A stretch of 14,562 nt of DNA from a virus (lineage: Duplodnaviria; Heunggongvirae; Uroviricota; Caudoviricetes): IMG/VR virus record IMGVR_UViG_2534681835_000020; one strand, 5' to 3'. Below are positions 7,347 through 10,197 of this stretch, piece by piece. Within the stretch, counting starts at the first letter, position 1, and each line of letters starts with the position of its first letter. A model generated the notes under the pieces. It worked only from the letters and a program-made list of their open reading frames with translations, did not search any database and was not told the origin of the DNA. The translations under genes were made by a program, and so were the position numbers.

Positions 7347-7889
7347 GGCTGGCTGATTCCTTATTGTGGGATAGCACTATCATACAATAAGTGGGTTAAA
7401 GGGAGAGCGTTACCGCCTGATATGCTGTATGAATAACAACCAAATTTCAGGGGCGGAAAAAGATATGGGGGTACTTTTGGGGGTATCTATAAAAAATGAA
7501 CAATAAAAAAGGCAACAAAAACAAAGCTTATCGCCTATGTGTATTGTTCCTATTATCCCATTTATATCAAGCAATTACGATTAAATCCTCTCTTTGTCTG
7601 CATCATGATTTTTTCCGTGTAACTCCATGTGTAAGTAATTTTCGTCAACATAAATCAACAATAGAGCATCCGTATCTCAGATTGGCTCAGTCTTGTTGAT
7701 TTTTTCATCTTGATGAAACAATATTTCTGATATTGATGTTGGACATTTGGGGGGGCAGCTTAGCAGGCCTGTACAGGTTGTTTCATTGATTATTGCTCTA
7801 TATGCCTGCCCTTTTAGATAGCCCTTTCCTGTCTACTTCCATCTATGGTGTAATCCCTTGCGAGATTAAGGTTTCTTTCGAGAGATAGT

Positions 7890-8549
7890 ATGGAATTATT
7901 CGAAAATTATTTGTCAGCGTTACCTAAAAAAAAGCGATTGAGTAAAGTCAAGTTGATTATCCTAAAGAGATTATGGGTTTCAGATGATTTTGATTTTCCT
8001 AAACCTTGGGTCCCATCGACAGAATTACTGGAATTGACAGGGCAAAAGTACTTCGATAGACGAACAAGAGAGTTGCGTGATGAACTAGGCTGTGATCTCG
8101 AAAGCTCGTACATTCCGGAATTCTCGGGACATGCTTGGCGGCTGAAATCAAGCATGATTGCCCCGCCAATGGAAAGGGAATATCTGACAGAATCACAACG
8201 ATCCAGTTTATTTTCTAACTGCAGCAATACATGTGCAACATGTGGTAAAACTGTTGCCGCTGGGGTCAGGGGGCTACAAGCGGATCACAAAATACCTTTG
8301 TCACGCGGTGGTGGAAATGAGTTAACCAATTGGCAAGCTCTTTGCCACAATTGCAACGTAGGTAAGAGAAGAGCATGTGAGGGATGTACTGAAGATTGTT
8401 ACACATGCTCATGGGCATTTCCTGAAAAATTTGGGATAACAACAATGCTCCATCTGCCAGAAGCTAGTTTAAGAAGAGCCCAACAACTAGCTGATGCAAA
8501 GGGTTTTTCTTTAGACGAAATCGTTGACTACGCAATACGCAAGCTTTGA
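7890..8549 (+). CDS. HNH-family endonuclease (candidate restriction endonuclease) with a Cys-rich zinc-binding region and a ribbon-helix-helix-like C-terminal tail
   Basis: 219-aa ORF with CATCGK ... LQADHKIPLSRGGGNELTNWQALCHNCNVGKRRAC, a classic HNH/beta-beta-alpha-metal motif with flanking CxxC pairs. The gene is AT-rich and convergent with a C5-methyltransferase gene. Confidence 0.8.
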   Translation: MELFENYLSALPKKKRLSKVKLIILKRLWVSDDFDFPKPWVPSTELLELTGQKYFDRRTRELRDELGCDLESSYIPEFSGHAWRLKSSMIAPPMEREYLTESQRSSLFSNCSNTCATCGKTVAAGVRGLQADHKIPLSRGGGNELTNWQALCHNCNVGKRRACEGCTEDCYTCSWAFPEKFGITTMLHLPEASLRRAQQLADAKGFSLDEIVDYAIRKL

Positions 8550-9597
8550 ACATCATTCGATTCCAGTGGTGATGCCAACTGTTTTTTTTCATTAGATCAA
8601 CCGCTTCGAGTGCTTTACGAATTTGCCTTCCTGTTGCTTCGGCAACAGGAGGAGGAAAAGCGTTACCTACTTGACGATAAGCAGCTGTTTTTTTCCCAGA
8701 GAATTCCCACCAGTCCGGGAAACCTTGGATTCGTGCAGCCATTCTCACCGTCAAACGAGGCATATTTTCAAGACCTGCTCGAATATTTCCGTCTCTTCCA
8801 ATATACCCAGTAAACCCCTTTTCAGGGCTACTATCAGCTATGGAATGCCCGTTGACTCCAAGCGCTTGCCAAGCTTTTTTGGCTCTCGTCGGTCCAAGGT
8901 CTGGACCTCCATGCTTATGGGAACCGCCAACAAGTGTAGGGGCTATATTGTTAGCGGCCTTTCTCCATGCCTCGGCTCCTTCCCAGCCACCCTGTGACAT
9001 TAAGTCAAAGAGAGCATCACCCACAGTCGGTGGTATCAACGTTTCACTCGGCCAACGAAAATGAGCGGAATACTTACCACGCAATGCAACTAAAAGAACT
9101 CGGGGACGAAGCTGAGGAACTCCGTAATCAGAAGCGTTATGAAGTTTCCAAAAGGTTTTATAACCCATTGCAGAGAAAGCATGATCTAGTTCTTGTCGGT
9201 ATTGTTTAAACTTTGGGTCTAATAAACCTGAAACATTTTCAATCATTACTGCTTTTGGCTTAATGATGTTCACAATTTTGAGCGCTGTTGGAAACAAATC
9301 ACGTTCATCATCTTTGCCTAGTTGTTTCCCTGCTTTTGAGAATGGCGGGCAGGGCACTCCCCCTGCGACCAAGTCAATATCAGAAAAATTATATGCAGTA
9401 TGTTCAGCAAAATGCTTAACGCAACCCTCTATGATATTTTCCCAACCTAAAGAATGGAGCTCATTGTTGAGGCGAAGAGTTTCGCAGGCAGCAGGATCAA
9501 TCTCGACGAGCGCGCGGTGAGTGAAGCCAGCGTTATGTAACCCTAGAGCTTGACCTCCTGCCCCTGCACAAATCTCTACAGATGTGTATTGTAACAT
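8464..9597 (-). CDS. DNA (cytosine-5)-methyltransferase
   Basis: 377-aa ORF with motif I EICAGAGG, motif IV GGVPCPPFS (catalytic Cys), motif VI ENV, motif VIII QLRPRVLLVA and motif X GNAFPPPVAEA. There is a ~50-aa tail after motif X, and the 3' end overlaps the HNH gene by 86 bp. Confidence 0.9.
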   Translation of the reverse strand: MLQYTSVEICAGAGGQALGLHNAGFTHRALVEIDPAACETLRLNNELHSLGWENIIEGCVKHFAEHTAYNFSDIDLVAGGVPCPPFSKAGKQLGKDDERDLFPTALKIVNIIKPKAVMIENVSGLLDPKFKQYRQELDHAFSAMGYKTFWKLHNASDYGVPQLRPRVLLVALRGKYSAHFRWPSETLIPPTVGDALFDLMSQGGWEGAEAWRKAANNIAPTLVGGSHKHGGPDLGPTRAKKAWQALGVNGHSIADSSPEKGFTGYIGRDGNIRAGLENMPRLTVRMAARIQGFPDWWEFSGKKTAAYRQVGNAFPPPVAEATGRQIRKALEAVDLMKKNSWHHHWNRMMFKACVLRSQRFRLKKNPLHQLVVGLFLN

Positions 9598-10197
9598 GTC
9601 ATTAAACCTGTATATAAAAACAGTTGTATGTTTATCTGATCAGAGACCATTACGCAACAAATTGTACAAAACAAGTAGTACCGTCGCTATTGAACCGGTC
9701 AGCTTAGTTACTTGATTGCTGAATGACAAGGCAATCTACAACTTTGTTTTGGAATCCTATATTTATCAAATAACTAACATTCGACAGTACTATTGGCATT
9801 CTCTTGATCAGACAGGCAGAATCTCATGTGGACTGAATAAAATGCCTTAGCTGAGTACGAAAAGAACTACTATCTGTTTACATGATTTTTTGTCCGTAAG
9901 ATGCATTGCGTCCGCTGTAAATAGCAGACGCATTCTGCAGAGAACAAATGAATAAGAAAGATTGGCACGCTGCTTGTGGAATTCAGCTTTGGCTTCGTCG
10001 CAACATGTCGGTTGTTTGTCGTGCTCGTAAGATATCTACGGTCTGAAGATAATGTGATTGCTCCCGCCTGCTCAACACTCTGTGATCGATACGAATCAGT
10101 TCGTACTTATCTACTAGGAAGTTGACTGTATCGGCTAAGGGGAATCCCGTTTTCAATATGTACCTTCATAACAGTGTCGTCAATGCGCTGCGTATCG

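Follow-up and report, generated by a model that had tools for sequence, protein, structure and literature searches.

A candidate Type II restriction-modification module of Escherichia coli O111 with a predicted GCCGGC specificity and a putative LexA operator in front of the methyltransferase gene

Two genes which face each other in a stretch of 14,562 nucleotides (nt), filed in IMG/VR as the virus record IMGVR_UViG_2534681835_000020, raise the question whether they form a restriction-modification (R-M) system, which sequence such a system would recognise and how it could be controlled. The whole stretch, called the window in the following, carries a gene for an HNH nuclease candidate on the plus strand (7890-8549; 219 amino acids (aa), identical to WP_001444700.1) and a gene for a C5 methyltransferase on the minus strand (8464-9597; 377 aa as the window reads). 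A sequence-only reading had proposed that the two are a Type II R-M pair of unusual architecture, with coding regions overlapping by 86 bp and a homopolymer that could act as a phase-variation switch. We consider it likely that the pair is an uncharacterised Type II R-M module, that the overlap is an artefact, that the methyltransferase is specific for GCCGGC and that a LexA operator sits on the methyltransferase gene.

The proposal of a Type II pair is supported by the proteins themselves, a complete C5 methyltransferase and an intact HNH nuclease. The product of the HNH open reading frame (ORF) matches the Pfam family HNH (PF01844, 3.8e-10). The methyltransferase ORF matches PF00145 over its full length (1.4e-68, profile positions 2-323 of 324) and TIGR00675 (5.9e-45), and the canonical motifs that had been claimed for it can be read in the translation: I as CAGAGG, IV as GVPCPPFS, VI as ENV, VIII as QLRPR, IX as RIQGFPD and X as GNAFPPP. 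It had also been stated that no controller protein is visible, and this holds as well; no small helix-turn-helix ORF is found between or beside the two genes, nor anything that marks a C-box system.

Homologues of the HNH protein number more than 340, with 53-92% identity among the matches listed. The linkage to the methyltransferase was followed in 53 HNH loci, sampled as one genome per species plus three look-ups. An orthologous methyltransferase (46-92% identity) directly adjoins the HNH gene in 50 of these loci, which come from many phyla; at two loci the neighbour is a different C5 methyltransferase, and the last locus is a fragment of a gene. Identity declines in step for the two proteins across the loci. 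The HNH gene is carried by 56 complete genomes of Dam+ Dcm+ E. coli. A nuclease with intact catalytic residues, adjacent and genetically linked to a methyltransferase across taxa, is to be expected of a Type II system, and from this linkage the HNH protein and the methyltransferase are predicted to be a genuine R-M pair.

What the pair may recognise is indicated by relatives of the methyltransferase which have other nucleases as partners. The copies in Pseudoalteromonas and Pseudomonas, 66% identical, are convergent with nucleases of the NaeI family (PF09126 at about 1e-67; NaeI structure 1ev7 at 1.3e-39). A metagenome scan gave 80 further loci with methyltransferases 55-93% identical to the E. 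coli one. The partner belongs to the same HNH family in about 8 of them, and a few more weak HNH matches are of a distant type; NaeI-family nucleases are the partners in 16 loci. All six co-directional ORFs that were tested, of about 285-311 aa, are members of the NgoMIV family (PF09015, 1e-99 to 1e-128). The fourth kind of partner is a second and distantly related type of HNH protein, about 200 aa long, which has 28% identity to the E. coli nuclease over the winged-helix and HNH regions. Examples are loci L068, L070, L072, L073 and L077 for NaeI, L084, L085, L091, L119, L126 and L128 for NgoMIV, and L092, L097, L114 and L129 for the HNH protein of about 200 aa. None of the metagenome loci holds both the HNH family of the window and a NaeI nuclease, which fits different nucleases in one role, and beside this methyltransferase clade the nuclease types are mutually exclusive. 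That one clade of methyltransferases is combined with four nuclease partners, unrelated to each other or only distantly so, clearly exemplifies the replacement of the nuclease within an R-M module.

The sister methyltransferases linked to NaeI and NgoMIV nucleases are 57-72% identical to the E. coli methyltransferase, and when the relatives are ranked by this identity, HNH-linked and NaeI-linked ones interleave (72.0, 72.0, 71.7, 71.3 and so on). The same is seen in the recognition domain (aa 185-278), for which a search of the PDB found no solved relative: compared there with NaeI-linked methyltransferases, the E. coli enzyme shows identities of up to 69%, and their median, 62.8%, equals that found with HNH-linked ones from outside the enterobacteria. 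NaeI (GCC^GGC) and NgoMIV (G^CCGGC) both recognise GCCGGC. Because the partners are swapped with NaeI and NgoMIV nucleases, the recognition domains are equally similar and both enzymes recognise this site, GCCGGC or a close variant is most likely the specificity of the methyltransferase as predicted from these comparisons. The NaeI and NgoMIV systems resemble the E. coli pair also in being two-gene modules with a methyltransferase of the same clade (recognition-domain identity about 60-69%); NaeI-linked loci are often convergent, and in several NaeI and NgoMIV loci the methyltransferase gene is preceded by the same LexA box that is described below. They differ in the nuclease, since the E. coli enzyme, built from winged-helix, HNH and ribbon-helix-helix-like parts, has no similarity to their PD-(D/E)XK enzymes. 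GCCGGC does not occur in the 14.5-kb window, where 3.4 +/- 1.9 sites would be expected from dinucleotide shuffles; this absence is weakly informative and may reflect a general rarity of the palindrome in E. coli. A paper on Caulobacter ScmA gives YGCCGGCR as the sequence.

A candidate for the control of the module was found by aligning the regions upstream of the methyltransferase gene from E. coli, Citrobacter, Dryocola, Dickeya and Pectobacterium. The alignment contains a palindrome resembling a LexA operator, ACCTGTATATAAAAACAGTT, at 9606-9625, of the form CTGT-N8-ACAG and with its core ending 10 nt upstream of the methyltransferase ATG; on the coding strand of the methyltransferase the box reads AACTGTTTTTATATACAGGT in E. 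coli. The CTGT and ACAG arms are kept in all five enterobacterial genera and the spacer is variable. The box is the sole CTGT-N8-ACAG in the window, in which 0.14 would be expected, and its flanks fit the extended LexA consensus TACTGT...ACAGTA. With an approximate LexA matrix it scores 22.8 bits, inside the range of real E. coli operators; a score of 21.7 bits was reached by only a single shuffle of the window out of 200.

Similar boxes precede the methyltransferase start by 25-64 nt in Salmonella, Vibrio parahaemolyticus, Neptuniibacter, Endozoicomonas, Pseudoalteromonas, Pseudomonas and numerous loci from metagenomes, and they occur with all four types of partner nuclease (loci L005, L008-L010, L014, L015, L048, L055, L067-L073, L077, L082, L083, L085, L089, L092, L095, L098 and L101). 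In 129 loci, sites of at least 16.5 bits number 25 in the 26 kb of DNA upstream of methyltransferases versus 2 in the 588 kb elsewhere, and one of these 2 also lies just upstream of a methyltransferase gene. The Micavibrio sp. locus (L026) has a perfect alphaproteobacterial motif, GTTCCTATTTTGTTC, of the form GTTC-N7-GTTC, 68 nt upstream of the orthologous methyltransferase, and is the sole match among ten alphaproteobacterial or related loci. The LexA motifs of cyanobacteria, Leptospira, Bdellovibrio, Verrucomicrobia and myxobacteria were looked for upstream of the methyltransferase and none was found. A CTGT-N8-ACAG sequence in the 5' region, kept at orthologous positions, is what is seen in genes of the LexA regulon, and the box suggests SOS induction of the modification through a putative LexA operator, which would stand in for a controller protein. 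Directly upstream of the box is a possible methyltransferase promoter on the minus strand (9629-9657; TTGCGT, 17 nt, TAAACA), weakly indicated by conserved alignment blocks.

The same palindrome could be an operator for the ribbon-helix-helix domain of the nuclease or for the methyltransferase, which would amount to autoregulation of the C-box kind. Autoregulation is common in R-M systems, and the tail of the nuclease resembles a fold of the DNA-binding type; we nevertheless find this explanation unlikely. The same box stands upstream of methyltransferases paired with NaeI and NgoMIV nucleases, which are without a ribbon-helix-helix. Its flanks are those of the extended LexA consensus and its score equals that of bona fide E. 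coli operators. Furthermore, among the named genomes the boxes occur only in gammaproteobacterial hosts, which use this LexA motif, and Micavibrio has the alphaproteobacterial form.

Control by LexA would set the module apart from the R-M systems with a C protein, such as PvuII and Esp1396I. These share the need to keep modification ahead of restriction; here there is neither a C gene nor a C-box, and the candidate controls are a host LexA operator and a ribbon-helix-helix fused to the nuclease. A comparison can also be made with the mobile genes under LexA control (colicins, integron integrases, tisB, symE), in which a canonical gammaproteobacterial SOS box is likewise found near the start of a horizontally transferred gene; the candidate regulated gene here differs in being an R-M methyltransferase. 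A report of a LexA-regulated R-M methyltransferase was not found in the searched literature. A transposon sequencing (Tn-seq) paper on Pectobacteriaceae was considered and set aside, as it concerns a different methyltransferase, from the MvaI system. The module is probably a Type II R-M module of a known kind, and its probable SOS-linked control is one that we have not previously seen described.

The other question is whether the HNH protein is a Type II nuclease at all. It starts with a winged helix (about aa 1-95), followed by an HNH domain of the beta-beta-alpha-Me type with two CxxC pairs (aa 100-162), an extra cluster of four cysteines (C163, C166, C170 and C173) and a tail resembling a ribbon-helix-helix (aa 183-219). 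In 101 homologues D132, H133, N147, N156, C115, C118, C152, C155, C166, C170 and C173 are invariant, and the cysteines of the extra cluster are all invariant or nearly so. The D-H...N...N motif, the flanking CxxC zinc ligands and the beta-beta-alpha fold of the HNH superfamily are all found. An AlphaFold2 model with a predicted local distance difference test (pLDDT) score of 90 shows a central HNH domain and two C-terminal helices. The HNH domain matches those of GVE2, Gme, McrA and Cas9; the sequence and fold searches of the PDB gave winged-helix and HNH domain matches only, with no full-length relative, and no solved Type II HNH enzyme is among the matches listed in either of the two fold searches. 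The ribbon-helix-helix or dimerisation element that the sequence-only reading had seen at the C-terminus is supported at the level of the family, in which 11 of 23 homologue tails match RHH_1 (PF01402, best 4.6e-4) and the tail profile matches CopG (1b01) at E=1e-3.

The nuclease family is without a solved or characterised relative. KpnI, Hpy99I and PacI, which are HNH enzymes of Type II, have in common with it a beta-beta-alpha-Me core, zinc-binding cysteines, a small size and a partner methyltransferase, and differ in that there is no sequence or structural match past the HNH core. We know of no enzyme of the KpnI, Hpy99I and PacI type with an N-terminal winged helix and a C-terminal ribbon-helix-helix. 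The closest solved HNH domain, both by sequence (E=0.008) and by Foldseek, is that of EcoKMcrA (PDB 6ghc), which is modification-dependent and has a different N-terminal reader domain and no cognate methyltransferase.

This likeness is one of several reasons to ask whether the protein could be a Type IV enzyme (McrA-like or of the winged-helix-HNH kind), a homing remnant or a Vsr-like nickase beside an orphan methyltransferase. EcoKMcrA is the best PDB sequence match, homologues are labelled 'McrA' by the Joint Genome Institute (JGI), and C5 methyltransferases often have repair nickases alongside. Winged-helix-HNH fusions of 224-283 aa have been described as Type IV enzymes dependent on N6-methyladenine (m6A); they stand alone, depend on the m6A made by Dam and are toxic in Dam+ E. 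coli (PMC11037411). HhiV4I and HtuIII, of the winged-helix-HNH and PUA-winged-helix-HNH Type IV kinds in that study, have the same order of a winged helix followed by HNH in about 220-280 aa (PMC11037411). The difference lies in the company that the enzymes keep: 87% of the Type IV winged-helix fusions have no methyltransferase nearby (PMC11037411), against the 50 of 53 linked loci here, and the E. coli host is Dam+ Dcm+, which is incompatible with a nuclease dependent on Dam or Dcm methylation. Moreover, the protein fills the slot that NaeI and NgoMIV nucleases take in the sister loci and is never found alongside them. In PADLOC the Type II model REase_II (PDLC03478) matches at 5e-21 over aa 50-207 and Type IV at 5.5e-4; by these scores the protein is judged to be related to the PDLC03478 family but to lie outside it. 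A methylation-sensitive Type II enzyme is favoured because of the strict methyltransferase linkage and the residence in Dam+ Dcm+ E. coli, and we regard a Type IV enzyme, homing remnant or nickase as very unlikely.

The unusual architecture does not survive comparison with other genomes. The window is identical over 14562 of 14562 nt to the draft contig AIGJ01000017.1 (assembly GCA_000249875.2), and the closest complete genome, E. coli O111:H8 strain 8E, differs from it at five positions: single-base indels at 335, 1950, 2341 and in a T run, and one substitution at 2557. The run is a T8 homopolymer (A8 on the coding strand of the methyltransferase) at 8582-8589, and not at 8574-8581 as had been given, and it has a one-base undercall or deletion relative to T9. 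It is T9 in strain 8E, O111:H- 11128, strain 14614 and RM9387. When run length was checked across isolates, 53 out of the 54 complete E. coli genomes matched a 71-nt probe with T9 exactly, and in the remaining one the difference is a substitution, the run length being unchanged; there is no length polymorphism among them.

With T9 the methyltransferase has 356 aa (WP_000942525.1) and its 3' end is at 8528, with the stop 22 nt inside the HNH gene. The convergent ORFs do overlap by 86 bp as the window reads (7890-8549 and 8464-9597); the true overlap of the 3' ends is the 22 bp at 8528-8549, where the HNH protein ends in ...YAIRKL* and the methyltransferase in ...QSLRIA*, and this overlap is conserved in Enterobacterales. 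The ...QSLRIA end is itself conserved in Enterobacterales and beyond, and no homologue matches the 40 additional residues in the tail of the 377-aa form. The 356-aa product is found on at least 1000 contigs and the 377-aa product on 11, mostly old drafts or early SRA runs. Compared with the nearest complete genomes these T8 contigs show one-base indels, most of them in homopolymers of 6-9 nt, and 0-3 substitutions per 2-17 kb, which is the pattern of homopolymer sequencing error. The remaining differences of the window from 8E, at 335, 1950, 2341 and 2557, are probably draft-assembly errors too. As judged from these alignments, the 86-bp overlap and the 377-aa methyltransferase are most probably the result of a one-base deficit in the T9 run caused by homopolymer sequencing error.

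It should be noted that the spacing of the two genes differs widely among homologous pairs. HNH loci are mostly convergent, with 9 divergent and 1 tandem, and the 3' ends range from a gap of 60 nt to an overlap of 70 bp; the commonest overlap is 4 bp, and that of Enterobacterales 22 bp. The overlap is not a conserved device because spacing and orientation vary in this way.

The run could still be a genuine contingency site at which slipped-strand mispairing alters the C-terminus of the methyltransferase and the antisense overlap. Homopolymers of 8-9 nt are prone to slippage, and the 377-aa product recurs on its 11 contigs in several assemblies and runs. These contigs carry further homopolymer undercalls and almost no substitutions, however, and the complete genomes hold no length variation. 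A frameshift would also leave the core intact. Runs of T7, T8 and T9 give products of 347, 377 and 356 aa, all of which keep residues 1-337, the run being 3' of motif X; these residues comprise the entire catalytic core and come close to the length usual in the methyltransferase family (335-336 aa). A one-base change had been thought to end the protein about 50 codons earlier; compared with T8, the T9 product is 21 codons shorter with the 22-bp overlap, and the T7 product 30 codons shorter with no overlap. Sister alleles do not keep the run either: it is interrupted in a 91%-identical allele (E. coli ET245, Citrobacter), which reads TTGTTTTTT, it reads TTCTTTTTT in Dryocola and it is absent from Pectobacterium and Dickeya, and the methyltransferase still has 356 aa in all of these. 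The phase-variable R-M systems, with tracts in mod, hsdS or Type IIG genes, also have a mononucleotide run inside an R-M gene; the run here differs in lying past the last catalytic motif, in being invariant in complete genomes and in not being kept in sister alleles. A contingency site is in our opinion very improbable. Since the complete genomes have T9, the 377-aa tail is without a homologue and the core is kept in all frames, neither the 86-bp overlap nor the homopolymer switch is taken as biological, and the one-base deficit is predicted to have no switching function.

Another homopolymer lies in the HNH gene, an A8 run at 7926-7933 on the plus strand (codons 13-15), and A7 or A9 would truncate the nuclease after 16-18 aa. 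A7 is found in the complete genome CP077460 (O111:NM 14614), the annotation of which gives a shorter HNH gene, and in two drafts (L060 and L062). With A7 the nuclease may be truly inactivated, or the missing base may be one more homopolymer error.

That the methyltransferase is the DruM protein of a type II Druantia system can practically be dismissed: DruM is its best PADLOC match (1.5e-143) in a list headed by DruM and Type II methyltransferase models, and against this, neither the window nor the island as annotated in RefSeq has a DruE, DruF or DruG, the neighbours are without PADLOC matches and the gene has a small nuclease as its consistent partner. With DruM as the top model for an ordinary R-M methyltransferase, false Druantia calls are possible if the partner genes are not demanded.

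The Type II module with a LexA operator could work as follows. The methyltransferase would methylate GCCGGC, and the nuclease would read the same site, when unmethylated, through its winged helix. It would dimerise through the ribbon-helix-helix tail, and its zinc-stabilised beta-beta-alpha-Me site would cut both strands. The putative LexA operator sits between the putative promoter and the start codon, where LexA would hold the methyltransferase at a maintenance level. DNA breaks, for example from self-restriction, would induce the SOS response and raise the expression of the methyltransferase. The induced transcription may run antisense into the convergent nuclease gene, the expression of which may then fall; read-through of this kind may occur because no terminator separates the genes, none having been found between them above background level in a promoter and terminator scan. 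A coupling of the two genes through convergent transcription, as the sequence-only reading had it, may occur in this form and is independent of the coding overlap.

Several points weigh against parts of this account. The LexA matrix, made from 20 E. coli operators, is approximate. The box is absent from many gammaproteobacterial homologues (Thiothrix and others); it is considered lineage-restricted because many other lineages are without it. A consensus scan called no sigma-70 promoter near the box. The tail of the nuclease in the window itself is below Pfam significance for a ribbon-helix-helix, and the monomer model has two helices there. One of the T8 contigs belongs to a 2020-era assembly, for which a rare genuine slippage allele is conceivable. 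The prediction of GCCGGC is based on methyltransferases which are 57-72% identical, and specificity can change at such a distance. Accession searches yielded no information on the pair, and biochemical or methylome data on the system were not found in the searched literature, in which a single-molecule real-time (SMRT) paper on O111 is blind to 5-methylcytosine (5mC).

A wider hypothesis, to which we give slightly less than an even chance, is that gammaproteobacterial methyltransferase genes of the GCCGGC type are wired to the SOS response through a LexA operator whatever their nuclease partner is, be it this family, NaeI, NgoMIV or the second HNH type. Breaks from autoimmune restriction would then raise protective methylation, induced transcription in convergent modules might dampen the nuclease, and the O111 nuclease would be a structurally new HNH isoschizomer or neoschizomer of NaeI and NgoMIV. 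If true, this would be a control mode for R-M systems which senses damage and is free of controller proteins. A functional LexA box would tie R-M homeostasis directly to the DNA-damage response and would explain the absence of a controller protein.

The widespread and uncharacterised nuclease family with winged helix, HNH and ribbon-helix-helix gains a concrete predicted site in GCCGGC, and with it a possible place as an isoschizomer or neoschizomer of NaeI and NgoMIV. The system is found in Shiga-toxin-producing O111 and some O157 strains, in which SOS also drives the induction of the Shiga toxin (Stx) phages, and changes in methylation or restriction that depend on SOS could matter for phage traffic in these strains. 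The overlap and the switch would have been a false lead; they show how homopolymer undercalls in drafts create 'overlapping genes' and 'phase switches'.

As for the nuclease gene, the inverted-repeat search around both genes found no significant repeat upstream of it (background level). A possible extended -10 element, TGGTGTAAT, lies at 7846-7854 on the plus strand; it is kept in E. coli, Citrobacter and Dryocola and is a weak candidate.

As a predicted Type II R-M module, the gene pair occupies the edge nearest to thrW of a genomic island in E. coli O111 and its relatives. At 7546-7580 there is a degenerate copy of the thrW (tRNA-Thr) 3' end, followed by the sequence which comes directly after thrW in strain RM9387. 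Because of this succession the window is two tandem islands, a variable one from 1 to about 7548 and an older one which opens with the R-M pair. Past the pair the older island has CbtA/YeeU remnants, RadC, an antirestriction gene and DUF932. In two O111-type genomes, those of strains UTAK-8 and 7-55 62A, the sequence breaks off some 125 nt into the HNH gene and nothing more of the pair is left, which suggests deletion or insertion sequence (IS)-mediated loss of the whole module.

In the variable island the indel at 335 splits a P4-type island integrase into ORFs 1-447 and 318-1214, and those at 1950 and 2341 are inside an IS3 transposase. Two further proteins are encoded there on the minus strand, neither of them with a PADLOC match: a multi-pass membrane protein of 203 aa (3410-4021), which has a weak Pfam match to SieA (superinfection exclusion) in the precomputed annotation, and a protein of 151 aa (4843-5298), the N-terminus of which resembles a ribbon-helix-helix by eye.

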